Positions 339 to 52,288 of a DNA stretch of 64,000 bases are shown here, one piece after another. The stretch lies in the NCBI GenBank assembly GCA_963668625.2, contig CAXXKA010000006.1:640001-704000 (forward strand), given 5' to 3'. The DNA comes from an uncultured candidate division Zixibacteria bacterium (GTDB lineage Bacteria > Zixibacteria > MSB-5A5 > UBA10806 > 4484-95). Made by a program: the position numbers and the translations under genes. The notes under the pieces were generated by a model, which searched no databases, was not told the origin of the DNA, and saw nothing but the letters and a program-made list of their open reading frames with translations. Each line of letters starts with the position of its first letter. The stretch's first letter is position 1.

Positions 339-1133
339 ATGAGTGGAAAACGCTTAGTTCTACAGAGGAAGTCTATGGCTAATCAAACAGTTTGGGAAAA
401 TTACAAAAAAACTATGGATCCCGTAGTTAGGGATAAGCTCCTGAAGGAATACCTTCAACTGGTTAGAAACGTAGCCAGCAGAATGGCCGCCGGTTTTCCG
501 AAATCTGTCGAGTACAACGATTTGGTAAACACCGGTGTTATCGGCTTGATCGAGGCATTCAACAATTACGATCCGGCTCGCGGCGTAAAGTTCGAAACGT
601 ATGCCGTGCCGCGTATCAGGGGAGCTATTCTCGATGAACTCAGAGCGCTGGATTGGGTTCCGCGCTCGACCAGGGCGAAATCGAGAGAGATAGACAGGGC
701 TAAAACGAAGCTCGAAAATACTCTCGGAAGATCGCCCAATAAAACGGAGCTTGCCAAGCAGCTCGATATGAATACCGATGAATTGTTGTCGGCGCTAGGT
801 GATGTTTCATCGACGATGCTTTTGTCTCTCGATGAGCTCATCTGCCGTGAGGATGATAACCGTCAAGTACCGAGAATCGAGACTGTGCAAAATCAAGCAA
901 ATGAAAACGTGTTAAATGATTTGGAAAGGTCTGAACTGCGAGCGTTTTTGATCAACTCGATCAGTTCGTTATCCGAACAGGAACGTTTGGTAGTTGCCCT
1001 TTACTATTACGAGGAACTGACTCTCAAGGAGATAGGCGAGGTCATGCTGATCTCCGAATCGAGGGTTTCCCAGATACACACCAAGTCGGTGCAACGTCTG
1101 AGAGGCTTGATCAGGGAGAAGTTCGCTCTTTAG
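339..1133 (+). CDS. fliA: RNA polymerase sigma-28 factor FliA/WhiG
   Basis: DLVNTGVIGLIEA, KFETYAVPRIRGAILDELRALDWVPRS, YYYEELTLKEIGEV..ISESRVSQIH. The true start may be ATG 375 (GAGGA upstream). Confidence 0.97.
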   Translation: MSGKRLVLQRKSMANQTVWENYKKTMDPVVRDKLLKEYLQLVRNVASRMAAGFPKSVEYNDLVNTGVIGLIEAFNNYDPARGVKFETYAVPRIRGAILDELRALDWVPRSTRAKSREIDRAKTKLENTLGRSPNKTELAKQLDMNTDELLSALGDVSSTMLLSLDELICREDDNRQVPRIETVQNQANENVLNDLERSELRAFLINSISSLSEQERLVVALYYYEELTLKEIGEVMLISESRVSQIHTKSVQRLRGLIREKFAL

Positions 1134-1977: not shown

Positions 1978-3159
1978 ATGAGCAAAGCACAAGAACCATT
2001 TTTTTATACCGAGCTGGAGTGCCCGGTGTGTAAAACCGTTAACAAATTCGAGAATATCAGAAACGGCGCTTATACCGAAAGCGGACGGGACAGGGATTTC
2101 AAGCCGACTGGCAGAACATGGGTCGATCCGGCTTACCAGAAATTCGATCCCCTTTTATTTTTCATGGCAACTTGCCAGAAATGTTTTTACACCAGGGAGT
2201 TTAATAACGAATTCAAAAACTGGCAAAAAGACAGCTCGTTCAAAACCTATCGTCAAAAAAACATACAGCAAAAACACCTCTCAGACCTGGCCGATAAAAA
2301 TGGTATCATTTTATTTTTGGGCTCGAAACTCGACCAGAGTACTTTTCCATTCGAAACGGCTGTAATTAAATTATTACTCGGTATTTATGATGCTAAATTC
2401 AGCGGGCGGAAAGTCAATCTCGATATCGGAAGGTATTTCTTGAGAATCGCCTGGCTGTTCAGGGATAGAAACGGCGGAACAGGTTCGCAAATATCCCAAA
2501 ATGCCAGACTGTTCCAGGAATTAAAAGGCGCCGCCCAGGTGGCCAATCAACTCGTGCCTAATTATGATGCGAAAGTCAGTAGTATAAAAAATATGATAAA
2601 TAAAGATTTCAGTTCCGCTTTTAGCGATACCCCGGAAGCCGAGGAACATAAAAAGCAGATCGAGGAAGTTATTGCCAACATGTCCGCCTCTATCGGTCCG
2701 TTGGCGGAAGCAGGTTCCAAGCTTATCGACCTGTTCAAGAACGCCGAAAAATCTCTCACCGGCCAGGAGGCAGTGGATGAGGACAAGTTCTTCGATTACC
2801 CGGGATTTACCACATTTCTTGAAACGGCCAAAGGTAAATGGGATGAAGTCCCTGTTAACGAGGCCGAGGCGATGCAAAAAGCAGCTGAATATTATCAGAA
2901 AGCATACGAAACCGGCGGCGAAATTAGCCAGGGTATTCAGCAAGTACAAGCCGCTTACCTTATCGCAGAACTGTACCGCCGTGTAGGGCAACGCGATGAG
3001 GCCGGGCAGTATTTTAACCAGACTATTAAGATGGGCAGAGATATCGTTATGGGCAAGAAAGGCGACGCCTCGACTGTCAACTACACCAAGAATCTATTGG
3101 AGATGGCAATGGAGCAGGCGAGGTTGAACAAAAGCGAAGCCGGGGGAGAGGCAAAATGA
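1978..3159 (+). CDS. DUF2225-family protein (Zn-ribbon plus TPR-like helices) with long helical insertion
   Basis: ECPVCK...D.DFKP....Y..FDP.....CQKCFY, LRIAWLFR, A.EYYQKAYE, YLIAELYRRVG..DEA.QYF. Confidence 0.8.
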   Translation: MSKAQEPFFYTELECPVCKTVNKFENIRNGAYTESGRDRDFKPTGRTWVDPAYQKFDPLLFFMATCQKCFYTREFNNEFKNWQKDSSFKTYRQKNIQQKHLSDLADKNGIILFLGSKLDQSTFPFETAVIKLLLGIYDAKFSGRKVNLDIGRYFLRIAWLFRDRNGGTGSQISQNARLFQELKGAAQVANQLVPNYDAKVSSIKNMINKDFSSAFSDTPEAEEHKKQIEEVIANMSASIGPLAEAGSKLIDLFKNAEKSLTGQEAVDEDKFFDYPGFTTFLETAKGKWDEVPVNEAEAMQKAAEYYQKAYETGGEISQGIQQVQAAYLIAELYRRVGQRDEAGQYFNQTIKMGRDIVMGKKGDASTVNYTKNLLEMAMEQARLNKSEAGGEAK

Positions 3160-3926
3160 ACAAAGCGAAATCGAAACAAACACCTAAAAGTATGTTAAGG
3201 CTATGGGAAAGATTGGAAATCGAATATTCCAATCAGGATCAAGTCACTGAATATGTGTCTCGTATCGAGGATTTCGATAAAAACCTGCTGGTTATAGAAA
3301 AACCCGTCCGCCTATCAGGAAACAAGCAGCTTAACTCCGGTGATCGTATTGATGTAACTTTCAATCGTGATGACGCCGCCTACAGATTCGAGGCGCTTAT
3401 CGTATCTATCGATGCTAATCGCGAGGACATAATGACGATTAAAGCCGTCTCGGGAATCAATCGTTCCCAACGGCGGCGGTTCGTAAGAATCGATATTGCC
3501 GGAGAGGTGGCTTTCAAGGTGGTCAGGATGACCGCCGACAGCGAACCGGAATTGAGCCTGAATCTAAAAGGCGAGCTATTGAATATATCTGCAGGCGGCA
3601 TACTTCTAAACACGGATGCCTCTTTAAAGCGTGATAATTTAGTACTTCTGAATTTTTGGCTTAAAAACAGCCAACGATTGGAGAACGTTCTCGGCGTGGT
3701 CAAACGTCACGAACAGGCTACGGATGACGAGAACGAACGGGTGGAATATTTAACCGGTATAGAGTTTCTTACCAAGGATCAAGCCGCGAGCAAGCTGGCC
3801 CTGGATATCAATGAAGTTCTGCCGTCATCCGTTAATTTCTTCGATGAAGCTCTTCAGCAGGCTATTGTCCAGTTCGTATACAGGCAGCAGGTTGAGAGCA
3901 GAAAGCATGTAAAAGTAAAATCATGA
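3156..3926 (+). CDS. YcgR/MotI-like flagellar brake protein, PilZ domain
   Basis: QRRRFVRI (RxxxR) and NISAGG (D/NxSxxG) c-di-GMP motifs, with a YcgR-like N-domain. ATGA overlap with the upstream gene. Confidence 0.9.
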   Translation: MNKAKSKQTPKSMLRLWERLEIEYSNQDQVTEYVSRIEDFDKNLLVIEKPVRLSGNKQLNSGDRIDVTFNRDDAAYRFEALIVSIDANREDIMTIKAVSGINRSQRRRFVRIDIAGEVAFKVVRMTADSEPELSLNLKGELLNISAGGILLNTDASLKRDNLVLLNFWLKNSQRLENVLGVVKRHEQATDDENERVEYLTGIEFLTKDQAASKLALDINEVLPSSVNFFDEALQQAIVQFVYRQQVESRKHVKVKS

Positions 3927-4522
3927 GAATTTTGCTGATCCTGACGCTCGGAATAGTGTATTCACTATTCGGTACGGCGTCAGCAGGGGACATCTCTATA
4001 CACTCAGATGATTCATCGCTTGTTGATATCACCGCGTTATTCTCAGAATCAGAAATTCCGGTCGAGCCTCTCGGCAGGATTGCCGAATTTTTCTATCGTG
4101 ATTTCGAATTAAGATCGAGCCAAAAACCATATAATGTAGCGCTTATTATGAACGAATCCGATGACACCGCCCACAATAACAGCGGCCGATATATCGTAAA
4201 ATTCGATATATTGCAGAGTGGCTGGAAAGTCAATCTCGCGTTTCATATTCCGATGTTTATTTTCGTATATACTAAAAATTATGAGATTGTAGCGCAGGTT
4301 AAACTATATGACCGCAAGAGCGCCGACCCGGAAATGATAAAAAAGTATAATGTCTCGAACGAGGGGGCGCGGGTACTGCAATTTATCGATAACGATCCGA
4401 ATGTTGGCGGACTCATGATACCTTACACCGCTCAACAGGTCTTGGAACTCGAAACCGAGAAACTACTGGCCGAGAAATTATCGAAAGATATTCACGATAA
4501 AATAAAGAAGCGTGGGGGCTGA
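3923..4522 (+). CDS. hypothetical exported protein
   Basis: Signal peptide MRILLILTLGIVYSLFGTASA. ATGA overlap with the PilZ gene. Confidence 0.7.
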   Translation: MRILLILTLGIVYSLFGTASAGDISIHSDDSSLVDITALFSESEIPVEPLGRIAEFFYRDFELRSSQKPYNVALIMNESDDTAHNNSGRYIVKFDILQSGWKVNLAFHIPMFIFVYTKNYEIVAQVKLYDRKSADPEMIKKYNVSNEGARVLQFIDNDPNVGGLMIPYTAQQVLELETEKLLAEKLSKDIHDKIKKRGG

Positions 4523-4529
4523 TAAAAAA

Positions 4530-4952
4530 ATGTACAGGAAAGCACAACCTGCAAAATCTCTAATAATGAAGAAAGTGCTGATTGTCGAGCCCGATCGTTT
4601 GACGAGAATCGTACTCTCGAAGATATTATCGAACTACCTGAGTTGCGAGGTCAACATCGCCTCGAACAAACACGAGGGTGAGAGCTTTATCAGGTCGGTA
4701 GCCTACGACCTGTACGTGCTCGGTATGTCGAAAAATATCGAGGATGATTTGGATATTATCCGCCAGATACGCGATATCGATGAACGTGTACAGATAGTGG
4801 CGGTAACAGGTGATAGCTTCGATGACGATATCGAGCTTATCAAAGGAGTAGGGATCGACAAAATAGTGTACAAACCGCTAAAGCTCACGCCATTCTTAGA
4901 GATTGTGGCAGGTGCGTTCATCGAGAGCGAGCGCGTGTTTAACTATGCATGA
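4530..4952 (+). CDS. atypical (pseudo)receiver-domain protein
   Basis: Receiver fold (KVLIVE, VAVTG, YKP), but Gly at the phospho-Asp position (DLYVLG). Start uncertain (4512/4530/4566). Confidence 0.8.
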   Translation: MYRKAQPAKSLIMKKVLIVEPDRLTRIVLSKILSNYLSCEVNIASNKHEGESFIRSVAYDLYVLGMSKNIEDDLDIIRQIRDIDERVQIVAVTGDSFDDDIELIKGVGIDKIVYKPLKLTPFLEIVAGAFIESERVFNYA

Positions 4953-4977: not shown

Positions 4978-5847
4978 GTGCCGCGAAAAAAGCAAGTTGG
5001 CACAAAATGTCAGTTAGAAAAAGAACTGGCTCTTTTGTACGAAATTAGTTCTCTGGTTCAGCTATCCCCATCCAATCAGGAGACATTCGTGAAAATCCTG
5101 GAATTGATAGGAGAGGTGATAGATTTCAGGTCGGCCTCTTTATACCTGGTCTCGCTCGAAACCGGGAGACTTCACGAGGCGGCTAAAATCGGTCGCAGTG
5201 TAGAACTTATCAGTTTCGTTCAATTCGAGATGGGTATGGGATTTTCCGCATGGGTGGCTAAAGAAAAGCGGCCGGTGGTATTAAACAATCTTCGGAAAAA
5301 TCATGGCGGCGCGAATGTCAGGTCATTTATGTCCGTTCCGATGGTGTTCAAGGATGAACTGATCGGAGTTATCAATTTCGCGCATGAGGAAACCAACTCA
5401 TTCAGTGAGCGTGATATGCAGATCGTTGGCATTATAGCCGCGGAAACCGCCGTTACGATCGAGCGCATGATTTACGAACATCACCTCGAAAAGAAAAACA
5501 ACGAGCTTTTGGTGATAAACGAGAAGCTCAAACACACGCAGGCAAAACTCGTGGATTTGGAGAAAAAGCAGACTGCCGCAGAGATGGCGGCGACGCTTAA
5601 TCATGAAATAAATAATCCGCTGGCGATTATCGCGGGCAATGCGCAGTTTTTACTCATGACCATGAAAAGTTCTAATCCATCGATAATTAAACGGCTCAAA
5701 GCGATAGATAAAGAGGCATCCGTGATCGCTCAGATTACTGAAAAATTCAGGCAACTGGATTCGTTGGTAACCGAGGATTACGTGAAAGGCGATTCGCGGA
5801 GAGTTATAAATCTTAGTAAATCGGTCAAGGCTGGTGAGATGTGCTAG
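4978..5847 (+). CDS. GAF + HisKA (DHp) protein lacking HATPase domain
   Basis: GAF (G.GFSAWVA, SFMSVPM...ELIGVINF, FSERDMQIV), coiled coil, H-box LNHEINNPL. Protein ends about 80 aa after the His. GTG start with AGGAGG. Confidence 0.85.
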   Translation: MPRKKQVGTKCQLEKELALLYEISSLVQLSPSNQETFVKILELIGEVIDFRSASLYLVSLETGRLHEAAKIGRSVELISFVQFEMGMGFSAWVAKEKRPVVLNNLRKNHGGANVRSFMSVPMVFKDELIGVINFAHEETNSFSERDMQIVGIIAAETAVTIERMIYEHHLEKKNNELLVINEKLKHTQAKLVDLEKKQTAAEMAATLNHEINNPLAIIAGNAQFLLMTMKSSNPSIIKRLKAIDKEASVIAQITEKFRQLDSLVTEDYVKGDSRRVINLSKSVKAGEMC

Positions 5848-7547
5848 ATGGGGTCTTTGAAAAGACATTCGATGAAAAGGAACTCCGGGAACTGGTCAGA
5901 GCCGATATCGCCGGATACCTGATGCTCGATTCGACCGGCCGGCCGAAATATAGCGGCGGCAGACTTGGGGATGATCCGGTATGGATCGACAAACTCAAGA
6001 ATTCGCTGCCTATGTTGCTGAGGCATGGCCAGGATGGTGAAACCGGAGGAACTTTTTACACGAATTCCGGTTTGCCTTTCTACGCCGAAAACATTGATGG
6101 CAAACACACAATTTTCATCGAAAAACTTCCCAATAGTAATGATATAATTTGTTTGGCATTCGATTTGAAAACGCCGCTGCAGGATTTGTATAACTATAAG
6201 TCCGAACTGGTAATTCTTTCACTTATCAGCCAGGCGGTCAGGGCGTTCAACCAGGCAGAAAATTTGGAGACGATTCTAAAGCTGGTGCTAATCGGCGTTA
6301 CCGCCGGTGGAGGACTTGGATTTAACCGGGCTTTCATTCTTCTTACCTGCGATGAGCAATGTTGTTTGAAAGGCGCATTGGCCAACGGGCCGTCCTCACC
6401 CGAAGAAGCACATCAGATATGGGACAAGCTTTCCAGCGGCGAGATTAGCCTGGAAACCATGTTCAACGAGGTGCTGAAAAAGAAATTCGATCAGGAGGAG
6501 CCACTAAACGATTTATTGGCCAATATCGTAATCTCGCTCACGGATAAAGATAATATTTTCGCCAAGGCGGCGCTGGAAAAGAAATCTATGCTAATCGATG
6601 AGGAAACTCTGGCCTCCGAACCCAATGCCGAGCTTCATACCATGATCGGTCCCGGTCCATTGGCGGTCGTACCGCTTATCGGTCAGAACTATCTTCAGGG
6701 CGTATTGATCGCCGATAATTTTATCACGCGCAAGGAAATCACCGAGAGCGATCTTCGCCTGTTGGAGATTTTCGCAAGATACGCCAGCGATTCGATAAAG
6801 AATTTCCGCCTGTACGAGAACCTAGAGAAAAAGATTAGCGACCTGGAAGTGGCAAACCAAACAATCATAAAAAGCCGTGAAAACGTTATCAAAGCCGAGA
6901 GACTCACGGTTCTGGCGAACATGGCCGGCGATGTCGCTCACGAGATCAGGAATCCCCTTACAATTATAGGCGGATTTACGAAAAACATGTTGAAATCCAT
7001 GCATGAGGAAGAGAAAAATTTCGAGTACCTTAATATTATAATCGAACAGGTTGAAAGAATAAGCCAGTCGCTGGAAAAATTCACAAGCCTGATGAACTAT
7101 GAGATATCGAATGATAAAGTATGCGATCTCCAGGATCTGGTAAGTTCGGCGGTGGATATCGGAATGACAGGTTCGAAAATCCCCGCAATCGAGATAATCG
7201 GAGATCACCAGGTAAAAGTAAAAACCGATCCGGATTTATTCAGGCAGGCATTGGTAATAATATTGAAATATGTAAACATGATCAATGATAAGCGTGTAAA
7301 AGTAAATTTGATTATTTCAAATAAAAACGACAGAGCGTTAATATATTTCGACTCTGATGGTTTTAAAGGAAAATTTGCCGAAAATATATACAGGAGTTTC
7401 TATTTGGGGGGCGGGCACGAACGATTGGAACAGCTTTCGACGACCCTGGAGATACTAAAATATTACCGGGGGAATATCGGCCTGGAGGCTGCGGAAGGCT
7501 ATGAAAAGCGGTTCTATTTAGAACTGCCTGTGTTTAAGGAGGAATAA
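5841..7547 (+). CDS. GAF sensor histidine-kinase-like protein with degenerate HATPase domain
   Basis: GVTAGGGLGFNRAF-type GAF and H-box VAHEIRNPL. The C-terminal region lacks recognisable N, DxGxG and GxGL boxes. Confidence 0.85.
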   Translation: MLDGVFEKTFDEKELRELVRADIAGYLMLDSTGRPKYSGGRLGDDPVWIDKLKNSLPMLLRHGQDGETGGTFYTNSGLPFYAENIDGKHTIFIEKLPNSNDIICLAFDLKTPLQDLYNYKSELVILSLISQAVRAFNQAENLETILKLVLIGVTAGGGLGFNRAFILLTCDEQCCLKGALANGPSSPEEAHQIWDKLSSGEISLETMFNEVLKKKFDQEEPLNDLLANIVISLTDKDNIFAKAALEKKSMLIDEETLASEPNAELHTMIGPGPLAVVPLIGQNYLQGVLIADNFITRKEITESDLRLLEIFARYASDSIKNFRLYENLEKKISDLEVANQTIIKSRENVIKAERLTVLANMAGDVAHEIRNPLTIIGGFTKNMLKSMHEEEKNFEYLNIIIEQVERISQSLEKFTSLMNYEISNDKVCDLQDLVSSAVDIGMTGSKIPAIEIIGDHQVKVKTDPDLFRQALVIILKYVNMINDKRVKVNLIISNKNDRALIYFDSDGFKGKFAENIYRSFYLGGGHERLEQLSTTLEILKYYRGNIGLEAAEGYEKRFYLELPVFKEE

Positions 7548-7903
7548 TGAGCACCATATTAATTGTGGATGACGAACCCGCAATCAGGAAGCTCTACGAG
7601 AAAGAGTTCGGCGAGGATGGCTTTAACGTACTTCTGGCCGGCTCCGGTGATGAGGCATTGTTACGAGTTAATGAACCGAATGATATCGATCTGGTAATTC
7701 TGGATATCAAAATGGAGGGGAAGGATGGCCTGCAGGTTCTGGATGTTCTGAGAAATCAGAAAAACGGCGTACCGGTCATCTTAAATTCGGCTTATTCCAC
7801 TTACAAGAACGATTTCACATCATGGCTGGCGGATGCTTATCTGGTAAAATCCCATGACCTGACCGAGCTGAAAACCAAAGTGCAAGAATTGTTGATGGTT
7901 TGA
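7547..7903 (+). CDS. single-domain response regulator
   Basis: ILIVDDE, DLVILDIKM, NSAY, ADAYLVKS. Confidence 0.93.
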   Translation: MSTILIVDDEPAIRKLYEKEFGEDGFNVLLAGSGDEALLRVNEPNDIDLVILDIKMEGKDGLQVLDVLRNQKNGVPVILNSAYSTYKNDFTSWLADAYLVKSHDLTELKTKVQELLMV

Positions 7904-7904
7904 G

Positions 7905-8264
7905 ATGAACAAAAACAGACGAAATTTAGTGGATCATATAGAGTCAATCTCCGAGCAGATTCAGATTCTGGCTTTGAATATCGCTGTAGCGGCGGCTAAG
8001 ATGTCTTTCAATAAAAAGCTCGAACCGAACGTAAACAGCAAATTAAGTCAACTGGTAAACGAGGCAACCCTGGCGGTGAAAAATATGAGCATGGTGGTGA
8101 AGGCGGCGAAATCGGAAAAACCGAAATACGATATCCTTCACGAAAACCAGGGCAAGCTGGATACGGATACGATCGAGGGGATCGAAACCTCATTGCAGAC
8201 AATCCTCGATGATAGCCAGAAAATCATGAATATGCTGAATGAGGTGAAACAGAAGTCTATTTAA
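7905..8264 (+). CDS. small soluble protein resembling the chemoreceptor (MCP) signalling hairpin
   Basis: IESISEQIQILALNIAVAAAK aligns with the MCP consensus I..[18 protein letters not shown]. Tightly coupled in the operon. Confidence 0.65.
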   Translation: MNKNRRNLVDHIESISEQIQILALNIAVAAAKMSFNKKLEPNVNSKLSQLVNEATLAVKNMSMVVKAAKSEKPKYDILHENQGKLDTDTIEGIETSLQTILDDSQKIMNMLNEVKQKSI

Positions 8265-8274
8265 CGGGGGCAAA

Positions 8275-8673
8275 GTGCAGTATCGGGTATTAATAGTTGA
8301 TGATGAAATCGATGTCCTGAATGTATTAGAGGAGATGCTGGAAAAGCTCGGTTTTAATGCTGTGGCGGTTACCAGCGGCGTCAGGGCCATCGAATTGATC
8401 AAAAGCAGTCAATTCGACCTTGTTATAACCGATCTGGTAATGCCGGATAAAAACGGTATTGATATCATAAATGAAATTAACTCAAGCAGCAATCCTGTCC
8501 ATGTATTAATCACGGCCGGTGTCGATTTGCCTGATTTGGATATGGAAATACCAGGTATCGATAAGTACTCATTTATTAAAAAACCTTTCACGCTAGATGA
8601 TATAAAAACTAAACTATCGGCCTTCTGGGCTGATAGAAAAATCATGGTGAAGCAAGAGGTAAGAGAAAGATAG
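8275..8673 (+). CDS. single-domain response regulator
   Basis: VLIVDDE, DLVITDLVMPDKNG, ITA, IKKPF. GTG start. Confidence 0.92.
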   Translation: MQYRVLIVDDEIDVLNVLEEMLEKLGFNAVAVTSGVRAIELIKSSQFDLVITDLVMPDKNGIDIINEINSSSNPVHVLITAGVDLPDLDMEIPGIDKYSFIKKPFTLDDIKTKLSAFWADRKIMVKQEVRER

Positions 8674-8747: not shown

Positions 8748-8774
8748 TAAATATTGCAAAAATAAGATCGATAA
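8748..8774 (+). promoter_or_regulatory. sigma28 promoter
   Basis: TAAA-N15-ATCGATAA upstream of the response regulator and fapA. Confidence 0.55.
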
Positions 8775-8873: not shown

Positions 8874-9284
8874 ATGAAAGAAGATGCAAGAATATTGGTT
8901 GTTGATGACGAGGCCGTCATGAGGAATCTGTTATTAAAAATTCTTGAACAGGAGGGTTATCAAATAACCCTGGCGAGTACTTACGATGAGGCATTGGCAA
9001 GTTTGAACAACAAGCAATTCGAATTAGTCCTGGCCGATGTAAAGATGCCCGGTCAGAACGGTTTCGATTTGCTTAAGGAGATAAAATCCAACTGGCCTCG
9101 TACCGCCGTCATAATGATGACCGGATACGGTGATGCTTACACTGTCAAGGAAGCGCTTATGATGGGCGCAGATGAGTATATCACCAAACCCTTTAAGAGC
9201 CACGAAATATCGTTGATAATCGAAAGGGCGTATTGGCGACAGATGGCATCCAATAAAGACAGTATGATGATGGAGAACGAATAA
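8874..9284 (+). CDS. single-domain response regulator
   Basis: ILVVDDE, LVLADVKMPGQNG, MMTGYG, GADEYITKPF. Confidence 0.94.
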   Translation: MKEDARILVVDDEAVMRNLLLKILEQEGYQITLASTYDEALASLNNKQFELVLADVKMPGQNGFDLLKEIKSNWPRTAVIMMTGYGDAYTVKEALMMGADEYITKPFKSHEISLIIERAYWRQMASNKDSMMMENE

Positions 9285-9296
9285 CAAGCAGGTTTT

Positions 9297-10730
9297 ATGG
9301 TACAAGCTGCTCAGGCCCGACCGAACGTAAAGACGGTCGATCATAAGTCATATAGGTTCACGATTAATATCGCCAGCGATGAGATGACCGCTCATCTTAA
9401 AGTCGAACCTATCAAAAAAAGCGGTGAAGGCGCAATTAATGTTGAGGAAATAACGGAAGTACTCAACTCGCAGGGGATCGTGGCAGGTATCAATACCGAG
9501 CAGCTCGAGAAATTTCTGTCTGAAGAGTTAGTTTCCAAAGTGATCGAAGCGGCAAAAGGAACGCCGCCTGAAAAAGGAAAGGATGCGGCATTCGAATTGT
9601 TGTTCGAGAACGCCGGTTCCAAAGCTCCGGTACTCGGTGATGATGGATTTATCGATTACAAGAACCTGAACCTTATCAACAACGCGACCCAGGGGCAACC
9701 CCTGGCCAAAAAAATACCACCTACCCAGGGTAAGCCGGGAATTACGGTCACGGGTAAAAAGATCGATGGCATACTGGGCAAAGATAAAGCCCTGCCAAAA
9801 GGTAAAAACACCGATGTATCCCCAGATAATCCTGATCTGTTGATAGCCGTCAAAGACGGGTCGATAACTTATACGAGCAATCTGATCAGTATAGATGACA
9901 CATTCAAAGTTAATTCCGATGTGGATACTGCTACTGGCAACCTCGATTTCGTAGGCAGCATAGTGATTGCCGGTATGGTTCACGCGGGATTCTCGATTAA
10001 AGCCGCGGGAAATATTGAGATCGGTAAAAATATTGAGGACGCTGAAATCAATTGTGGAGGTTCGCTGGTCGCCAACGGTGGTTTTGTCGGCTCGGGTAAA
10101 GGTGTTATTAAAGCCGGCGAGGATGTATTTTTAAAATATGTCGAAAACCAGACTGTATTCGCAGGCCACGATGTCAATATTGGCGGCAGCGCTATGAACG
10201 CCAATATCACAGCCAATAACGCGGTTGTCGTAACCGGCAACAAAGCCGTTATTGTCGGCGGAAAGGTAACGGCCGCCAATTTGATCGAGGCCGGCGTTCT
10301 GGGCTCGGATTTGGGTACCTCTACTACTGTCAGGGTTGGCTACAACAAACAGCTGATCAAAGAGTATCGTGAAATCGAAACCGAAATGGAGCGTCTAAAA
10401 GCCGATGGGGAAAAAATACATAAAGCCATGTATACCCTGGTCAGGCTGGAGATAGATAATAAGCTGAATGCCGCCCAGAAAGTGGCTTTGGCTCAGCTCA
10501 AAGAGCAGCAGGTAGTTATTCCGGCACAGTTGGAAAAGCTAGAGTTACGAAAAACGGAAATCATAACCAAGCTCAACGAAAATAAAAAAGCTAAGATCGT
10601 AGCTAATCGTACTGTTTACCCCGGTACTACTATATGTATAGGCATGCTCAAACGAGAAATCAACAAGGTGATTAACGGCTGTACATTCGGCATAAGCCAT
10701 GATCAAATAGTAATAATGGCCAGAACTTAG
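9297..10730 (+). CDS. fapA: FapA / DUF342 flagellar assembly protein
   Basis: G.PP..G.D, IDYKNL, LAKKIPPT.G.PG.TVTG, VD..TGNLDF.GS, beta-helix, coiled coil, VYPGT.I.IG. Confidence 0.88.
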   Translation: MVQAAQARPNVKTVDHKSYRFTINIASDEMTAHLKVEPIKKSGEGAINVEEITEVLNSQGIVAGINTEQLEKFLSEELVSKVIEAAKGTPPEKGKDAAFELLFENAGSKAPVLGDDGFIDYKNLNLINNATQGQPLAKKIPPTQGKPGITVTGKKIDGILGKDKALPKGKNTDVSPDNPDLLIAVKDGSITYTSNLISIDDTFKVNSDVDTATGNLDFVGSIVIAGMVHAGFSIKAAGNIEIGKNIEDAEINCGGSLVANGGFVGSGKGVIKAGEDVFLKYVENQTVFAGHDVNIGGSAMNANITANNAVVVTGNKAVIVGGKVTAANLIEAGVLGSDLGTSTTVRVGYNKQLIKEYREIETEMERLKADGEKIHKAMYTLVRLEIDNKLNAAQKVALAQLKEQQVVIPAQLEKLELRKTEIITKLNENKKAKIVANRTVYPGTTICIGMLKREINKVINGCTFGISHDQIVIMART

Positions 10731-17611: not shown

Positions 17612-17854
17612 ATGCTGATCCTGACAAGGAAGTTGGGGGAATCAATTGCTATTGATAACAATATCAAAATCACGGTATTAAGTATCCATGGTAAACAGGT
17701 TAAAATAGGGATAATGGCCCCTGACACTGTTTCCGTGCATCGTGAGGAGATATTCAAAAAGATTCAACATGAAAATAAATCAGCCTCGCTTGCACTTAAG
17801 GAAGATTTACTGGAGGTTGCCAACATTTTGAAATCCAAACGCATAAAGCAATAA
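17612..17854 (+). CDS. csrA: carbon storage regulator CsrA
   Basis: [12 protein letters not shown]...[15 protein letters not shown] with the C-terminal helix typical of FliW-controlled CsrA. Confidence 0.97.
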
Positions 17855-17870
17855 CGGAATTTCCCGATAT
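17844..17870 (+). promoter_or_regulatory. sigma28 promoter of flgL-fliW
   Basis: TAAA-N15-CCCGATAT overlapping the 3' end of csrA. Confidence 0.7.
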
Positions 17871-22852: not shown

Positions 22853-23851
22853 ATGATTGAAGGTAAAAAGATTTTCTTGACCGGCGGCGCCGGATTCATA
22901 GGCAGTTCGATTATCGGTCGACTGGTGGACAACAACGAGATAGTCGTTTACGACAATCTCTCCCGCAACAGCCTGAAAGATTCCATCTTTCGTGATCATC
23001 ATAATATAAAGCTCATCCAGGGCGATATACTCGATTACGATAAGTTGGCCAGAAGTATGAAAGGCGCGGATGTCGTGATTCACCTGGCCGCTATAGCCGG
23101 AATCGACACCGTTATAAAAAGCCCGGTTAATACGATGAAAGTAAATATGCTGGGTACGGTCAACATGCTGGAGGCCGCCTCGCAACAGGATAAGCTGGAT
23201 AGAGTGATTGATTTCTCGACCTCGGAAGTATTCGGTGCGTATGCTTTCCGTAGCGAGGAAAACGACAGTACCGCTTTGGGCGCGGTTGGCAACGCGCGCT
23301 GGACCTATGCCGTCTCGAAGCTGGCCGCCGAACACCTTGCTTACAGCTATTATACCGAACGGCAGATGCCTACCGTGTCGATCAGGCCGTTCAATATTTA
23401 CGGCCCCGGCCAGATAGGTGAAGGTGCCGTGCATCACTTTATAGTTAACGCGCTGCAAAACCAAAATCTCGTCATACACGGTGATGGCGATCAGATTCGT
23501 TCATGGTGCTATATCGATGACCTGGTAGCAGGGGTCATGCTGGCAATCGAGAAAGAGAAAGCCGTCGGTAATTGTTTCAACATTGGCAATCCCCGCGGTA
23601 CGATCACGATTCACGGCCTGGCTCTGGCCATCATTAGAGTAGCTTACTCCAAGTCAAGTATCGTTTATATGCCTAAAAATTATGCCGATGTCGACCTGCG
23701 CATTCCCAGTATCACCAAGGCGAAAAAGCTGTTGGGATACGAGCCGAAGGTTGGCCTCGAGGAAGGGTTGAGAAGAACCGCAACGTGGTATTATGCAAAA
23801 ATCTTCAATAGTAAAACTGATAAAACCGAACATCTCCCGGTCGGCAATTGA
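22853..23851 (+). CDS. NAD-dependent nucleotide-sugar epimerase/dehydratase/decarboxylase (extended SDR)
   Basis: TGGAGFIGS, HLAA, STSEVFG, RWTYAVSK (YxxxK), RPFNIYGP, GDG.QIRSWCYIDD. Confidence 0.93.
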   Translation: MIEGKKIFLTGGAGFIGSSIIGRLVDNNEIVVYDNLSRNSLKDSIFRDHHNIKLIQGDILDYDKLARSMKGADVVIHLAAIAGIDTVIKSPVNTMKVNMLGTVNMLEAASQQDKLDRVIDFSTSEVFGAYAFRSEENDSTALGAVGNARWTYAVSKLAAEHLAYSYYTERQMPTVSIRPFNIYGPGQIGEGAVHHFIVNALQNQNLVIHGDGDQIRSWCYIDDLVAGVMLAIEKEKAVGNCFNIGNPRGTITIHGLALAIIRVAYSKSSIVYMPKNYADVDLRIPSITKAKKLLGYEPKVGLEEGLRRTATWYYAKIFNSKTDKTEHLPVGN

Positions 23852-24917
23852 GGCCGTAACGAGAGTTCTCGAATCGGGTAAGCTTGTCAACGGCCCGGTT
23901 GTCGAGGAGTTCGAAAAACGTCTGGCTGAGTACCTGGATATGCCGCACGCGGTGTGCGTATCCTCGGGAACTGCTGCCTTACATCTGTCGCTTCTGGCGG
24001 CGGATATACATCCCGGTGATGAGGTGATCGTGCCGGCGTTCACGTTTCCCGCTACGGCCAACGCGGTCGAAATGGTGGGCGCGATGCCGGTGTTCATAGA
24101 TTGCGAATCCGATGGGGTCAATATCGATCCGATGCAAATCGAAAAGGCCGTTAACGGTCGTACGAAAGCTATCATGCCGGTTCACGCTTTCGGAGTTCCG
24201 GCTGATATGGATAAAATCCTGGAGATCTCGTCAAAGCATAACCTGGTGGTTCTCGAGGATGCCGCCTGCGCGCTGGGCTCGAGTATAGAGGATAAGAAGT
24301 GTGGCTCGTTCGGAGACCTGGCTGCTTTCAGTTTTCATCCCAGGAAACTCCTGACCACGGGCGAGGGTGGGGCGGTTGTTACCTACGATAGCACTACCGC
24401 CGAACAGATCAGGAGCATGAGAAATCATGGCTGGGCAAAAGGCGATTACGATTACCTGGGCTATAATTACAGGATGACCGATATCCAGGCGGCGCTGGGC
24501 GTGGAACAGCTCGAGTCATACGATGATTTCATCAACACCCGCCGCCAGGTTGCCAGAAAATGCGCCCGTTTGCTCAAACAGATAGAATGGCTAAAACCAA
24601 TCCGCGTGAATGATGACAGTCACTGGAACGTACAGACATTGCTGTATGAGGTTGATGATGCGTTTAATCGTGATGAGGTAATCACTTATTTACGTAAGGA
24701 AAAGGTAGAAACCACCATAGGAACTTATTGTGTGCCTCTCACCAAGTTCTACCGTCAAAAATACGGTTACACCCCGGATGAATTTCCGAGAGCTTTTCAA
24801 CTGTTTAAACAGTCTATCAGCTTGCCTCTGTGGAATAAACTGGGTGATGACGAAATCGAAATGTTGCTTTACGCTTTGTACAAATTCACCTCGAGGAAGA
24901 ATGAGATAATGGCTTAA
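23793..24917 (+). CDS. DegT/DnrJ/EryC1/StrS PLP-dependent sugar aminotransferase
   Basis: SSGTAALH, GDEVIVPAFTFPATAN, EDAACALG, FSFHPRKLLTTGEGG, GYNYRMTDIQAALG. Overlaps the upstream gene by 59 nt. Confidence 0.95.
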   Translation: MQKSSIVKLIKPNISRSAIEAVTRVLESGKLVNGPVVEEFEKRLAEYLDMPHAVCVSSGTAALHLSLLAADIHPGDEVIVPAFTFPATANAVEMVGAMPVFIDCESDGVNIDPMQIEKAVNGRTKAIMPVHAFGVPADMDKILEISSKHNLVVLEDAACALGSSIEDKKCGSFGDLAAFSFHPRKLLTTGEGGAVVTYDSTTAEQIRSMRNHGWAKGDYDYLGYNYRMTDIQAALGVEQLESYDDFINTRRQVARKCARLLKQIEWLKPIRVNDDSHWNVQTLLYEVDDAFNRDEVITYLRKEKVETTIGTYCVPLTKFYRQKYGYTPDEFPRAFQLFKQSISLPLWNKLGDDEIEMLLYALYKFTSRKNEIMA

Positions 24918-24918
24918 T

Positions 24919-25896
24919 ATGAAAATATCTATCGCAGGAAATACGACATTCGCTTACTATTGCGCGGAGAAACTCTGTCGGGAGGGGATTAAAGTTGATG
25001 AGGTTTTTATACCCGAAAAAGGCGGCAATTATTTATTCGATTTTGTCGATTTCAAAAACTTGAGTGGCGAGTTCGATGTTAAGCTCATCAAACTTCCTCA
25101 AAATAAAACCAAAGAGTTTAAAACCGATCTACTGATAAATCTCGAATGGCCTTTGAAACTCGAACTACCGGTTAAAGCTAAGCTGGGATCGATAGGTTCC
25201 AACATGCGAGGGCAGTTCGATCGAGATTACCTGTTGGATATTGCCGCCGATATTTACAATGGCAAAAATAAAATGGAATTACAGCTGCTGTGGGAGAAAG
25301 ATGAATTGGAGCCGGGCGCGGCCGCTATCGACTACGAGCCGCCGTTTTTCAAAGTCATATCCTCACATTCGATAGAGATCAACCATCTGGACGATTTGAG
25401 ATCGGCTAAAACCAAAGCGATAACCGGTTATTTCAAACTTCTCACAAAATCTTTGAAGTATATAAACATTAATCAGGAGATACCCAGGCCTACCAATAGT
25501 GAGTTATCGATAAGCAGAGTCAAAGTCGATAAGCTGATAGACTGGAATAAAGGCGCAATATATTTGCACAATCTCGTTCGTTCTTTAACTCATCCGGGAC
25601 CCGGAGCGTATACGTTGTTCGGAGAGACCTCGACGAAAATCTGGCGAGGCCATTATTTCGAGCTGTCCGAATCCGATCATGATAATATTCAGCCTGGAAC
25701 TATCCTCGATATCATTGAGGAAGTAGGGCTGATCGTTAAAACCGGTCATGGCTCGTTCTTGGTAACGCGCGTACAATCGTCGGGCTCGCCAGAATTGCCT
25801 GCCTGGGTTTGGGCCGATCGCGAACATGTAAATTACGGCGACAAATTTGTGATGGAATATATCGAGCATAAGACCGAACCCGCGAGAGGTCATTAA
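24919..25896 (+). CDS. degenerate formyltransferase-like protein (Fmt/ArnA-type C-terminal domain)
   Basis: N-terminal MKI...G...FA..C. C-terminal IDW..GA..LHNLVRSLTHP.PGAYT...PGTI...KTG.G. No NxHxSLLP or DxG catalytic motifs visible. Confidence 0.7.
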   Translation: MKISIAGNTTFAYYCAEKLCREGIKVDEVFIPEKGGNYLFDFVDFKNLSGEFDVKLIKLPQNKTKEFKTDLLINLEWPLKLELPVKAKLGSIGSNMRGQFDRDYLLDIAADIYNGKNKMELQLLWEKDELEPGAAAIDYEPPFFKVISSHSIEINHLDDLRSAKTKAITGYFKLLTKSLKYININQEIPRPTNSELSISRVKVDKLIDWNKGAIYLHNLVRSLTHPGPGAYTLFGETSTKIWRGHYFELSESDHDNIQPGTILDIIEEVGLIVKTGHGSFLVTRVQSSGSPELPAWVWADREHVNYGDKFVMEYIEHKTEPARGH

Positions 25897-25898
25897 TT

Positions 25899-26126
25899 AT
25901 GTCAAGACTTCGTATTAACAAAAATATCGAGAGGACTGGACGTGAACAGGTAAAACTCGAATCTCGATTCGAACTTAACGTCCCCGGAACCGGCCGTCTG
26001 AGGACGAGCTGTAATCACGATAATTTTCACAAGGTCGTGAGACGGTTTCATGTCGTGTATGGAACGCGAAATGTTCCGGAAAATGTCGAGATCAAAGAGA
26101 CAATCAAACAGGGTGTATATGAGTAA
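25899..26126 (+). CDS. hypothetical protein
   Basis: 75-aa ORF with GAGG RBS that exactly fills the gap between two operon genes. Confidence 0.45.
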   Translation: MSRLRINKNIERTGREQVKLESRFELNVPGTGRLRTSCNHDNFHKVVRRFHVVYGTRNVPENVEIKETIKQGVYE

Positions 26127-26649
26127 ATGGAAATCTCACGGTGATGGCCGTGACTATAATGAAAAGCTAAAATCAATTGGCAAGGATGTCGTAATCGAGG
26201 ACGGAGTGCGATTGTATTTTCCTGAAAATATCGAGCTCGGCAATGACGTATATATCGGGCATGATACGATACTCAAAGCATATTTCGATAAAAAACTGAT
26301 AGTCGGAAATGGTACCTGGATCGGCCCGCAATGCTTCTTATATGCCTCCGGAGGTATTACAATCGGCGAGAATGTCGGGATAGGTCCCGGTGTTAAGATA
26401 ATGTCATCCGCACATATTACCAAACAGGCGCCCGGCCCGATACTTCATAGGCCGATAGAACACTCGGCAGTCGAACTCGCGGATGGTTGTGATATCGGCG
26501 CCGGCAGCATTATCCTGATGGGAGTACGAATAGGCAAAGGCGTTCAGGTAGGCGCCGGCGCGGTAGTAACAATGGATATCCCGGATTACTCGGTAGCCGC
26601 CGGTGTACCGGCAAGAATAATAAAAGCCCCCGAAAACGCGATGGTATAA
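26119..26649 (+). CDS. hexapeptide-repeat (left-handed beta-helix) acyltransferase
   Basis: IG.DV.I, GGITIGENVGIGPGVKI, GVRIGKGVQVGAGAVVT.DIPDYSVAAGVPARII. ATG 26119 preferred over 26050. Confidence 0.92.
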   Translation: MSKWKSHGDGRDYNEKLKSIGKDVVIEDGVRLYFPENIELGNDVYIGHDTILKAYFDKKLIVGNGTWIGPQCFLYASGGITIGENVGIGPGVKIMSSAHITKQAPGPILHRPIEHSAVELADGCDIGAGSIILMGVRIGKGVQVGAGAVVTMDIPDYSVAAGVPARIIKAPENAMV

Positions 26650-26652
26650 ACA

Positions 26653-27165
26653 ATGAAAAATCAAAAATTTAGTCAGAACACCAATGGTCGAAAAGCCGGC
26701 GTACAGAGCAGATTCAATTACGAGAAATTCATGCAACTGGCGCAAAACAGTTTCAATGTTAAAAAGTATTCGCGCGCGGCCGATAATTGCCGCCTGGCGG
26801 CGAATTTCGCCATGGCTCAAAATAATACTCGGGGAGCGGCCGAGTCATATCAACTGTGGATAAAATCCTTATTGAATCTGGGCAAACCCGCTGATGTCAA
26901 GAAGGTTTGTTGTGACGCAAGGAGCAAATTCGGCAATCATCCCGACCTGGTATACTACGAATATTTGTCCGCGCTCGATATAGGGGATAAAATAATCGCC
27001 GCCAAACTGGCTAGAGAATATATAGAGCTGACTAAAGAGATAGTAATTAACGAAAATTCGATTTTCGTTGATAATATAGATAAGCTCGATGAGGTGATAA
27101 GCAATTTGAATAACATTCGAACCGAGAAAATACCGGTAAGCCAAAGCCAGGAGATGGAGCATTAA
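26653..27165 (+). CDS. hypothetical TPR-like helical protein
   Basis: Operon-embedded ORF with Ala-rich helical repeats. Confidence 0.65.
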   Translation: MKNQKFSQNTNGRKAGVQSRFNYEKFMQLAQNSFNVKKYSRAADNCRLAANFAMAQNNTRGAAESYQLWIKSLLNLGKPADVKKVCCDARSKFGNHPDLVYYEYLSALDIGDKIIAAKLAREYIELTKEIVINENSIFVDNIDKLDEVISNLNNIRTEKIPVSQSQEMEH

Positions 27166-27166
27166 G

Positions 27167-29965: not shown

Positions 29966-29996
29966 GTTAACAATTCACCTTGAAACCCTATAACGC

Positions 29997-30023
29997 TAAA
30001 ATTTTTTCGCATTATGTCGAAAT
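29997..30023 (+). promoter_or_regulatory. sigma28 promoter of flagellin
   Basis: TAAA-N15-GTCGAAAT. Confidence 0.7.
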
Positions 30024-30123
30024 ATATAAGGAAATAGTATTTGTAAGAAAACGCAGTATACAAAAGGAGGTGGAGAGACAATTATTTCCTGCGAGACACT
30101 CGCAGTAATTTAACTTCGCAAAA

Positions 30124-30162
30124 GCAAACAATGGACGTTTGCAGACTATTTTCAAGGAGGAA
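30124..30162 (+). promoter_or_regulatory. CsrA-binding sites in the flagellin mRNA leader
   Basis: Hairpin GCAAAC-aATGGAc-GTTTGC with ANGGA in the loop, plus TTC-AAGGAG-GAA overlapping the SD. Same layout as B. subtilis hag. Confidence 0.8.
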
Positions 30163-30167
30163 CTTAA

Positions 30168-36131: not shown

Positions 36132-36158
36132 TAAAGTTTCAAGCGCCTGATCCGATAT
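36132..36158 (+). promoter_or_regulatory. sigma28 promoter of flgM-HDOD
   Basis: TAAAGTTT-N11-TCCGATAT, near-perfect consensus. Confidence 0.85.
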
Positions 36159-36176: not shown

Positions 36177-36662
36177 ATGAAGATTGAAGGAATGGGGATT
36201 CCGCAACAACCGGATCCCAAAGGAAAAAAGATAAAAGAAACCAAGCAGGCCGAGAAGTCACAAGAGACTCAAAAGCCGGTTTCTGATTCTGTTGAGCTTA
36301 ATAAAGGCAAAAAACAGATACAAAACGCCGGGTATTCGCAGCAAATAGCAAAGGGAGGAGCCTCGGATATCGCTTCAAAGAAGGATTTATCCGAACTCAA
36401 AGACAGAACAGCTAACGGGTATTACGATAAGCGGGAAATTAGAGAAGAAACTTCCGAAAAACTCATTGACAGCAATGAGCTTAAGGACGTTGTCAAAGAA
36501 TATCATTTATCCAATCTTTCCAAAGAGATTTTGTCGAAGGATTCCGATATACGCCACGAACGGGTTGCGGATGCTAAGCAGAGGATAGCCCAGGGTTATT
36601 ACGATGATCCTCAAAATTACGGGAACATTGCTGATAAAATCATGAATCATTTTGGGCTCTAA
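36177..36662 (+). CDS. flgM: anti-sigma28 factor FlgM-like protein with duplicated C-terminal motif
   Basis: MKI, DSVEL, DIRHERVADAKQRIAQGYY...IADKIM, and its own sigma28 promoter. Confidence 0.8.
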   Translation: MKIEGMGIPQQPDPKGKKIKETKQAEKSQETQKPVSDSVELNKGKKQIQNAGYSQQIAKGGASDIASKKDLSELKDRTANGYYDKREIREETSEKLIDSNELKDVVKEYHLSNLSKEILSKDSDIRHERVADAKQRIAQGYYDDPQNYGNIADKIMNHFGL

Positions 36663-51040: not shown

Positions 51041-52288
51041 ATGAGGCTTTCACGCGTTTTATTAATCACAGCCGTTATGGCGTCTTTTATGATCGGATGT
51101 TCAAGACATTCAACCGATCCCAATCCACCACGATCATTATCCAATTATGAAAAGGGCATTGTCGAATCGGGCAACGATTTCGGTATCGAGCTATTTAAAC
51201 AGGTTGCGGCTAATAATCCCGATTCCAATATATGTGTCTCGCCGCTATCGGTGGCTATGGCGCTGGGTATGACCTACAACGGCGCCCGTACCACTACCAA
51301 AGAGGCGATGGATTCCGTGCTTGACCTTACCGGTATGGACATAGCCGAGGTGAACCAGGCCTACCAGAGCCTGATCGATCTTCTCGTGAATCTCGATCCG
51401 GTCGTGCAATTCGAGCTGGCGAACTCTATCTGGTATCGCAATTCCTTCGATATCTCACAGGATTTCGTCGATTTGAACCGGGATTATTTCTACGCCGAGA
51501 TTAACCCGATGGATTTTGGTGACCCGACCGTAGTGGATATCATAAATGGTTGGGTGAACGACCAGACCCATGGCAAGATCGAGGAAATAATCGATCCGCC
51601 TATCAGTCCCAATACTGTTATGTATTTAATAAACGCTATCTATTTCCTGGCGGATTGGAAATACCAGTTCGATCCCGAGGAAACATACGCGTCTGATTTT
51701 TATATCAATGATGATGAAACCTCGAGCTGTAATATGATGAGTCAGTTCAATACTATCAGCTACGTTCAAGAACAGGACGGGCCGTCCGTTGTCAGGCTGC
51801 CTTATGGAAACGGGCTGTATGAGATGGTACTTTTAAGGCCCGCGTACGGGCAATCGGTAGATGAATTCATTGCCGGTCTTGATTCCGAAACGCTTGAGCA
51901 ATGGCTGGAAAATACCTCGGAGGGTGAAGTTGATATTCGTATGCCCAAATTCGAGATGAAATTCGAGGATGAGCTGAAGAACGAACTTTCGGATATGGGT
52001 ATGGGCATAGCTTTCACGCCTAATGTGGCTGATTTTACCGGCATGAAAGGAAGTAACCAGGATATTAAGGACCTTCTCATAAGCAAAGTAATTCATAAAA
52101 CTTTTATCAGGGTGGATGAAGACGGCACCGAGGCCGCCGCGGTTACCGCTGTCGAGATCGAATACACATCGGAGCCAGGTTATCCAACGATAATGTTTAA
52201 CCGGCCTTTCGTGTTTATGATAGTAGAAAATCACTCGGGCACGATATTGTTCACCGGCAGAATGAATTGCCCCCAATGGCCGGAGTAG
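51041..52288 (+). CDS. serpin-family serine protease inhibitor, lipoprotein
   Basis: Lipobox MIGC, SPLSV..AL.MTYNGA...T, INGWV...T.GKI, NAIYF...W...F, hinge EDGTEAAAVT, FNRPFVF...ILF.G. Confidence 0.96.
   Translation: MRLSRVLLITAVMASFMIGCSRHSTDPNPPRSLSNYEKGIVESGNDFGIELFKQVAANNPDSNICVSPLSVAMALGMTYNGARTTTKEAMDSVLDLTGMDIAEVNQAYQSLIDLLVNLDPVVQFELANSIWYRNSFDISQDFVDLNRDYFYAEINPMDFGDPTVVDIINGWVNDQTHGKIEEIIDPPISPNTVMYLINAIYFLADWKYQFDPEETYASDFYINDDETSSCNMMSQFNTISYVQEQDGPSVVRLPYGNGLYEMVLLRPAYGQSVDEFIAGLDSETLEQWLENTSEGEVDIRMPKFEMKFEDELKNELSDMGMGIAFTPNVADFTGMKGSNQDIKDLLISKVIHKTFIRVDEDGTEAAAVTAVEIEYTSEPGYPTIMFNRPFVFMIVENHSGTILFTGRMNCPQWPE

Follow-up and report, generated by a model that had tools for sequence, protein, structure and literature searches.

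The signalling tip of methyl-accepting chemotaxis proteins (MCPs) is usually viewed as a docking site dedicated to CheW and CheA, and laboratory-made soluble cytoplasmic fragments of the Tsr tip act on CheA/CheW complexes. A different kind of output is known for Tls, a regulator that resembles chemoreceptors and occurs in E. coli of phylogroup B2, where it is reported to sequester FlhDC (PMC12623472). The gene analyzed here encodes a receptor tip on its own. It lies among the late flagellar genes of a genome assigned to Candidatus Zixiibacteriota (G000; 4.3 Mb, 10 contigs), within a stretch of 64,000 nucleotides (contig 6, positions 640001-704000) that is referred to in its entirety as the window. 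At positions 7905..8264 of the + strand an open reading frame with an ATG start specifies a protein of 119 residues, termed mini-MCP, which its reading frame, Pfam and hhalign identify as a free-standing homologue of the tip with which chemoreceptors signal. The tip surface has here been cut free from the receptor, is preserved almost unchanged throughout the phylum and is retained in genomes from which CheW, CheA and the full-length receptors are gone.

Judged by profile comparison, the mini-MCP does derive from the MCP tip as a protein in its own right, and the homology goes well beyond chance. In an hhalign comparison with 20 canonical MCPs it was aligned over 116 colinear columns with a probability of 97.7% (E 1.5e-12). 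Residues 6-116 match positions 36-149 of the 172 positions of the Pfam MCPsignal profile (PF00015; E 3.1e-6, 27.6 bits, below the curated cut-off), a scan of the genome with the same profile gave 28.7 bits, likewise under the cut-off, and no other Pfam domain was found in the protein. The single sequence gave nothing significant against the PDB (E 6.5); a profile built from 36 orthologues retrieved TM1143 of T. maritima (2ch7/3ja6) at E 1e-5. Directed at the organism's own genome, this profile found the seven full-length MCPs with E values from 1.8e-9 to 3.5e-7, and among 1.84 billion proteins it yielded 157 matches at E<=1e-3. The best 150 of these comprise 32 proteins of up to 160 residues and 118 of 187-1363 residues, the latter, with full-length MCPs among them, being matched at an internal stretch that corresponds to query positions ~6-119. 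NCBIfam contains no family for the mini-MCP. The alignment with E. coli Tsr and the seven MCPs of the same genome is free of gaps through the tip, such that residue n of the mini-MCP corresponds to residue n+356 of Tsr. An earlier reading of the window, made from its letters alone (the sequence-only reading), had aligned a peptide of this protein to the MCP pattern without gaps; the peptide comprises residues 8-61, and its alignment holds against Tsr 364-417 and against the receptors of the genome itself. The same alignments bear out that the N-terminal arm is conserved and that the AGE.GRGF turn is replaced and, together with the absence of further Pfam domains, that sensor, transmembrane segments, HAMP domain and methylation helix are missing.

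The two arms of the tip are not of equal length in the mini-MCP. About 30 residues belong to the N-terminal arm and about 80 are colinear with the C-terminal arm of MCPs, and the part of Tsr upstream of position 357 has no counterpart. AlphaFold2, supplied with an alignment of 58 family members, predicts three helices (residues 2-35, 41-70 and 87-118) with a mean pLDDT (per-residue model confidence) of 77.4 and a pTM (predicted template modelling score) of 0.61; a shallower alignment led to the same three helices at a pLDDT of 64.5. On the + strand, helix 1 (7908..8009) represents the tip of the MCP N-arm and maps to Tsr 369-388. It is followed by a turn of residues 36-40 (8010..8024), which takes the place of the MCP G-E-x-G-R-G-F turn and varies within the family, and by helix 2 (8025..8114), the proximal part of the MCP C-arm, in which L50 is invariant. 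A linker containing proline and glycine (residues 71-86; 8115..8162) is variable, as seen from low column conservation, and predicted to be disordered, with an unconfident segment at residues 74-84 where pLDDT falls below 50. Helix 3 (8163..8258), in which the motif I93-E94-x-x-L97-x-x-I100 is conserved, is colinear with a more distal part of the MCP C-arm. A Foldseek search of the PDB with the first AlphaFold2 model returned nothing at E<=0.001. With the better model, a VIA-align search retrieved only generic three-helix bundles without any MCP tip in a prominent position, the best Z of 11.1 being below the level that is meaningful for helical bundles. These results would fit a fold in which helix 3 packs back onto the hairpin. 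The sequence-only reading had envisaged a simple hairpin; its derivation from the MCP tip holds, whereas the predicted structure has three helices and asymmetric arms.

What has been kept most faithfully is the outward face of the first helix. When a heptad register was assigned by eye, L8, I12, I15, I19, L22, I26, A29 and M33 fell into the core, and E13, E17, Q20, I21, L24, N25, V28, A31 and K32, which form an invariant stripe along helix 1, were read as exposed. The MCPs of the same genome carry D, D, N, L, L, N, I, A and R at these nine positions. Table 1 of a 2026 review (PMC13098124) lists Q374, I377, L380, N381, V384 and R388 of Tsr as lying within 4 Å of CheA-P5 and CheW in two models of the core unit, and names R404 additionally for CheW. 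These residues correspond to Q18, I21, L24, N25, V28 and K32 of the mini-MCP, and R404 to S48 (contacts as listed in PMC13098124, Table 1). Among 58 diverse members of the family, N25 is present in 57/58, A27 in 58/58 and A31 in 54/58; position 24 is L, I or V in 56 of them, position 28 V or I in 52 and position 32 K or R in 54. The opposite holds for the turn and the beginning of the second arm. Tsr G390-E391 is replaced by S and F in the window protein, G393-R-G-F396 by K-K-L-E, E402 by K and R404 by S. Across the 58 members, the position of E385 is mostly occupied by A, and the turn and the positions of F396, E402 and R404 vary.

The mini-MCP belongs to a family of small proteins that is characteristic of Zixibacteria. 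A word-indexed search returned 39 small homologues of 96-125 residues at E<=0.01 among 41 candidates, and those with an organism name stem from Zixibacteria. Ten more distant small representatives are annotated as Zixibacteria 'hypothetical protein' or bear an automatic 'methyl-accepting chemotaxis protein' label, and one partial distant member is labelled Bacteroidetes. In the ESM Atlas, Zixibacteria clusters of 'hypothetical protein' were followed by MCP clusters only. With a narrow profile the gene was detected in G000 and in 9/9 other genomes of family f1 and 14/14 of family f2 (family and genus labels are those of the tool used), that is in 24/24 genomes of the order. A broader profile at E<=1e-6, a threshold that also admits canonical MCPs (~1e-10 to 1e-16), found a match in 273/285 genomes of the phylum, and the best 150 places matched by it lie mostly in open frames of 116-176 residues. 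Of the genomes without any match, five were checked: four (families f4, f5 and f6) have no FliM and one (G203, family f13) does have it. Longer or fused forms of 271-2000 residues were not encountered at E<=1e-8 among 8000 candidates when the 58-member alignment was used, which is weak evidence as proteins of 210-270 residues fell outside the range. Full-text searches of the literature on flagella and chemotaxis of Zixibacteria and on truncated or short chemoreceptors yielded no description of the mini-protein.

The family is under purifying selection. Ratios of non-synonymous to synonymous substitutions (dN/dS, Nei-Gojobori) are 0.08-0.26 in six pairs with dS between 0.3 and 0.7; for the 17 pairs with dS of 0.05-1.5 the median is 0.28, and pairs involving the window's own gene are mostly saturated. 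Between two genera of family f15 (G208 and G212), the mini-MCP is identical in 124/144 positions, as compared with 92/118 for the neighboring receiver REC118 and 419/587 for the histidine kinase-like protein HK568, both of which are introduced below. None of 28 loci read in detail carries a full-length MCP at the place of the mini-MCP. The possibility that the gene is merely the remnant of a decayed receptor, which the sequence-only reading had named among the findings that would refute it, is rejected by the phylum-wide presence of small orthologues under purifying selection and the lack of full-length receptors in these loci.

Our next point concerns the relation of the mini-MCP to the chemotaxis machinery. 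G000 itself is well equipped: a che operon comprises cheB, cheA, cheZ, two cheY genes and cheR, and five cheW genes, a CheW-REC protein and seven full-length MCPs of 555-704 residues are encoded in addition. The five stand-alone cheW genes (contigs 7 and 8; loci L001-L013) are all located within ~200 bases of an MCP gene and so form MCP-cheW pairs. The CheW-REC protein (L088:8526-10061) has 510 residues with a long unassigned C-terminal part and is adjoined by a gene for a small HisKA-HATPase kinase (L088:10065-10838), far from the che operon. Neither is the mini-MCP gene found beside the che operon. Absence from draft genomes is soft evidence. In the order, 11/24 genomes (G239, G249-G253, G255 and G258-G261) encode no CheW-like domain and hence neither CheW nor CheA, eight of these 11 being at least 90% complete and two (G252 and G253) consisting of single contigs. 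A canonical MCP (MCPsignal at E<=1e-10) is missing from 13/24. Throughout the phylum, 189/285 genomes possess a CheW-like domain as compared with the 273/285 that have a family match. By family, a CheW-like domain is found in 4/14 genomes of f2, 0/9 of f15, 1/20 of f16, 0/4 of f17 and 2/15 of f20, with broad-profile matches in 14/14, 9/9, 19/20, 4/4 and 15/15, respectively. A member of the same family as G000, G246, encodes CheA and one other CheW-domain protein without any MCP above the Pfam cut-off; 2 kb upstream of its cheA there is an open frame of 206 residues with weak similarity to MCPsignal (G246:C3:191695-191928 and 193696-194079).

The flagellum is not a strict prerequisite either. 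Three of the genomes devoid of CheW (G239, G250 and G253) still have FliM. On the other hand, FliM and FlhA are both missing from G208 and G276, and FlhA is missing from G236, and all three retain the gene block around the mini-MCP. In these near-complete genomes fliA, the PilZ gene and the mini-MCP are kept (loci L095 in G208, L097 in G236 and L096 in G276), in G208 and G236 together with HK568, REC118 and flgN; the relatives G212 and G274 have FlhA. The mini-MCP is thus maintained neither by a CheA/CheW array nor, strictly, by the flagellum. Judging from gene content, docking to arrays cannot be what maintains the gene, because it is kept in genomes without CheW, CheA and MCPs; as a side activity in the window genome with its CheA and CheW proteins such docking is possible. 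Since the mini-MCP is kept where the usual chemotaxis partners have been lost, it probably works with something else.

The genomic neighborhood suggests where such a partner may be sought. The 28 loci represent families f1, f2, f7, f8, f10, f15, f16, f17, f18 and f20, and in 28/28 of them the mini-MCP gene resides inside a block headed by fliA. HK568 is situated directly upstream in 27/28 (the exception being L096 of family f20), and REC118 is inserted between the two in 26/28 (exceptions L062 and L096). In 26/26 further genomes, HK568 and the mini-MCP gene are less than 1 kb apart on one contig, as found by comparing lists of places by eye. The mini-MCP gene adjoins flgN in families f15-f17. 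Orthologues of HK568 are present at E<=1e-60 in at least 194/285 genomes; absences outside f20 are soft in this count, which scored four candidates per genome.

In the window, the block is headed by the gene for the FliA-type sigma factor (339..1133, + strand, as all genes of the block; Pfam Sigma70 r2, r3 and r4, and synteny), followed by those for a DUF2225/TPR protein (1978..3159; Pfam) and a YcgR-like protein with PilZN and PilZ domains (3156..3926; Pfam). The mini-MCP gene is part of a tight run consisting of HK289, HK568, REC118, mini-MCP and REC132, which is separated by a gap of 200 bases from REC136 and a FapA-family gene. HK289 (4978..5847; Pfam) ends after its GAF and HisKA domains without a catalytic domain, and the last 7 bases of its gene are shared with the start of HK568. 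REC118 (7547..7903) is a single-domain receiver (Pfam Response_reg, E 9.4e-22) with a highly conserved alpha4-beta5 region in an alignment of 17 orthologues. Its stop (7903) lies one base ahead of the mini-MCP start (7905), and in L089 the two genes overlap by 17 bases. The single-domain receiver REC132 (8275..8673; Pfam) starts 10 bases past the mini-MCP stop; REC136 (8874..9284; Pfam) is a further single-domain receiver, and the FapA-family protein (9297..10730) is recognized by Pfam at E 2.7e-63.

In HK568 (5841..7547), an N-terminal region of variable sequence is followed by a GAF domain, by HisKA with its histidine in place and by a degenerate ATPase domain. Pfam reports HisKA and GAF, with HATPase_c undetected at E<=1; in NCBIfam, AtoS can be aligned as far as the C-terminus. 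By eye, no N, G1 and G2 boxes are recognizable in the protein from the window and in most of its relatives, the domain being canonical, with N, G1, F and G2 boxes, in family f16 (e.g. L061:4774-6567). The histidine of the H-box is kept throughout. Taken from its sequence, HK568 looks like a kinase that has turned into a pseudokinase or a phosphatase. A hidden CheW- or P5-like domain at the N-terminus of HK568 was considered and rejected, as the first 120 residues are variable and appear PAS-like in relatives by eye, with no Pfam hit.

In one lineage, a CheW protein takes part in this arrangement. In 6/6 loci of family f8 (L089-L094) a gene for a CheW-domain protein directly follows the mini-MCP gene, with gene ends that are 2-4 bases apart or overlap, and some of these CheW proteins carry N-terminal extensions of 40-190 residues. 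In two genomes (G140 and G143) the adjacent CheW is the sole CheW-like domain encoded, so that there is no CheA. No CheW-like gene was found within ~7 kb in the 18 loci of the other families that were compared. The pairing of tip and CheW has thus survived in one lineage, attached to a HisKA module rather than to CheA, and the N-helix surface would most likely bind the adjacent CheW in these organisms.

Taking these observations together, we tentatively interpret the mini-MCP as a fixed member of the HK568/REC118 module next to fliA, in which it would serve for docking or regulation by means of its inherited N-helix face, a reading to which we assign slightly less than an even chance. An MCP would have been cut down to the last four to five heptads of its N-arm, the turn and about 80 residues of its C-arm, and this tip would since have been a permanent component of a signalling module peculiar to Zixibacteria, which is encoded behind the sigma-28 gene fliA and is made up of HK289, HK568, REC118, additional receivers and the mini-MCP itself. 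The protein would fold as a short bundle of helices and would present, as its docking surface, the outward face of the N-helix that MCPs use for CheW, CheA-P5 and trimer contacts. Through this face the mini-MCP could organize or regulate phosphotransfer between HK568, with its HisKA domain, and the single-domain receivers; in the lineage of the window, its partner may be another protein of the module or another copy of the mini-MCP. The suggestion of the sequence-only reading that the protein is connected to the neighboring receivers is plausible from operon structure, though not by way of arrays as a conserved function. A more far-reaching proposition, which we regard as speculative and rather unlikely, is that Zixibacteria possess a chemosensory-like pathway independent of CheA, in which, under sigma-28, a tip mini-protein scaffolds or gates CheY-like receivers together with a classical kinase (or pseudokinase) of the HisKA type. 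If this were true, an array-type receptor-coupling module would have been rewired onto an ordinary two-component kinase, including an orphan CheW in family f8, and the system would date back far enough to be spread across the phylum and would have outlasted the loss of CheA, of MCPs and even of the flagellum.

Several points weigh against a docking subunit in the HK568/REC118 module. HK568 is not universal: in family f20 a gene resembling that for the mini-MCP occurs in 15/15 genomes (E<=1e-6) and HK568 in 0/15 (E<=1e-60), and in L096 the mini-MCP gene directly follows fliA-DUF2225-PilZ. The N-helix residues are the most conserved ones in MCPs as well, and the retained surface is in part an ascertainment effect, because any MCP derivative that is still recognizable would match there. 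The Pfam score falls short of the curated MCPsignal cut-off of 34.6 bits, the predicted monomer (pLDDT 77) is a generic three-helix bundle that is silent on the oligomeric state, and no physical or predicted interaction backs any partner.

Other explanations have to be set against this. It had been proposed in the sequence-only reading that the protein is a decoy for chemosensory arrays or an adaptor linking the receivers to them, and in G000 it would then dock on CheW or CheA-P5 or join receptor trimers. The genome offers the components, with its CheA operon, five CheW genes and CheW-REC protein, soluble Tsr tip fragments disturb the control of CheA in E. coli, the residues of the N-helix contacting CheW and P5 are retained and the f8 orthologues are followed by CheW in all six loci. 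As a conserved function, however, array docking is contradicted by the order, which keeps the gene without CheW-like domain in 11/24 and without canonical MCP in 13/24 genomes, by the same pattern in f15, f16 and f17 and by the strong constraint in G208, an organism devoid of CheW, FliM and FlhA. Replacement of F396, E402, R404 and the glycine-rich turn and the lack of linkage to the che operon point in the same direction. Even for the genome at hand we consider a role as decoy or adaptor improbable.

Two further alternatives are, in our estimation, still a little less probable, each with only a small chance of being correct. In one of them, the mini-MCP acts directly on the adjoining receivers in the manner of CheZ and CheY, either as a helical-bundle phosphatase or as the target of phosphorylated REC118. 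Single-domain receivers are indeed present on both flanks, and the start of the mini-MCP gene is coupled to the REC118 stop; REC118 is, however, missing alongside in L062 and L096. Several receiver phosphatases present an acid and an amide from a helix, and E13, E17 and Q20 form such an invariant set on one exposed helix face, but they are conservative replacements of D, D and N in the MCPs of the same genome, and ordinary MCPs with equivalent residues have no known phosphatase activity. Moreover, the mini-MCP gives no match to CheZ at E<=1, and the Pfam CheZ domain is found in the che operon. In the other alternative, the protein controls gene expression by sequestering or releasing a regulator, for instance sigma-28 or a PilZ protein. 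Its most universal neighbors, fliA and the PilZ gene, which are present even in family f20 without HK568 and REC118, are in agreement with such a role, and so is the survival of the block in genomes without FlhA or FliM. Tls provides a precedent, being related to MCPs and having an output outside chemotaxis; it is reported to be a full-length receptor-like protein whose activity needs the N-terminal region, the part that the mini-MCP does not have (PMC12623472). Against such a role, a FlgM homologue is already encoded in the window (36507-36647 within the open reading frame 36177..36662; PF04316, 27.8 bits, over the cut-off). An FlgM-like role, an idea that arose from the adjacency of the mini-MCP gene and flgN in f15-f17, was rejected in view of this homologue. 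The FlgM-containing frame specifies 161 residues, longer than usual for FlgM, and it is the C-terminal part that matches.

Some other features of the window deserve mention. REC146 (4512..4952, + strand) contains a weak receiver domain (Pfam Response_reg, E 1.1e-9) whose usual acidic residues seem to be missing by eye, such that it may be a pseudo-receiver. The FapA-family gene is followed by flgF, flgG, flgA, flgH, flgI, flgJ, flgN, flgK, csrA, flgL and fliW. With a relaxed pattern based on the sigma-28 consensus, 15 occurrences were counted in the window as compared with 5.1 expected, among them 8748-8773, 17844-17869 and 36132-36157; such sites lie upstream of REC136, flgL and the FlgM-containing frame, with none directly before the mini-MCP gene. 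Among sequencing runs, 5841-8673 was matched by three DNA runs from a single study and by no RNA run. A sugar-modification island at 22853-32420 (epimerase, DegT aminotransferase, formyltransferase, hexapeptide transferase and TPR-glycosyltransferase) is located just before the gene for a flagellin of 750 residues, which suggests that this flagellin is glycosylated. Positions 51041-52288 encode a full-length bacterial serpin (Pfam E 1.5e-111).

Compared with the systems described so far, the mini-MCP is closest to the tip of Tsr (~360-480) and of TM1143, with which it is homologous and colinear over ~116 columns and with which it shares the N-helix residues that touch CheW, CheA-P5 and neighboring dimers. 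It differs from canonical MCPs in its size, 119 residues as against 555-704 in the receptors of its own genome, in the absence of sensor, transmembrane segments, HAMP domain and methylation helices as well as of a long hairpin with matched arms, in the replacement of the turn and of F396, E402 and R404, in its three predicted helices and in its persistence in genomes without CheW or CheA. The laboratory-made Tsr fragments resemble it in that both are soluble and consist of the conserved tip alone, whereas the mini-MCP is a natural gene under selection that occurs in CheA/CheW-free genomes as well. With Tls it has in common that both are relatives of MCPs tied to flagellar genes, with an output other than chemotaxis signalling; Tls is reported to be a full-length, Trg-like protein, whereas the mini-MCP is the tip alone and resides in a two-component operon (PMC12623472). 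It may be that the receptor tip has a second class of partners, which would bear on the readout of receptor tips at large; alternatively, short bundles of this kind may fulfil a structural function by themselves. The mini-MCP also constitutes a natural minimal tip that is useful for structural work on the contacts between receptors and coupling proteins, and the pair of mini-MCP and orphan CheW from family f8 is especially suited for this purpose.

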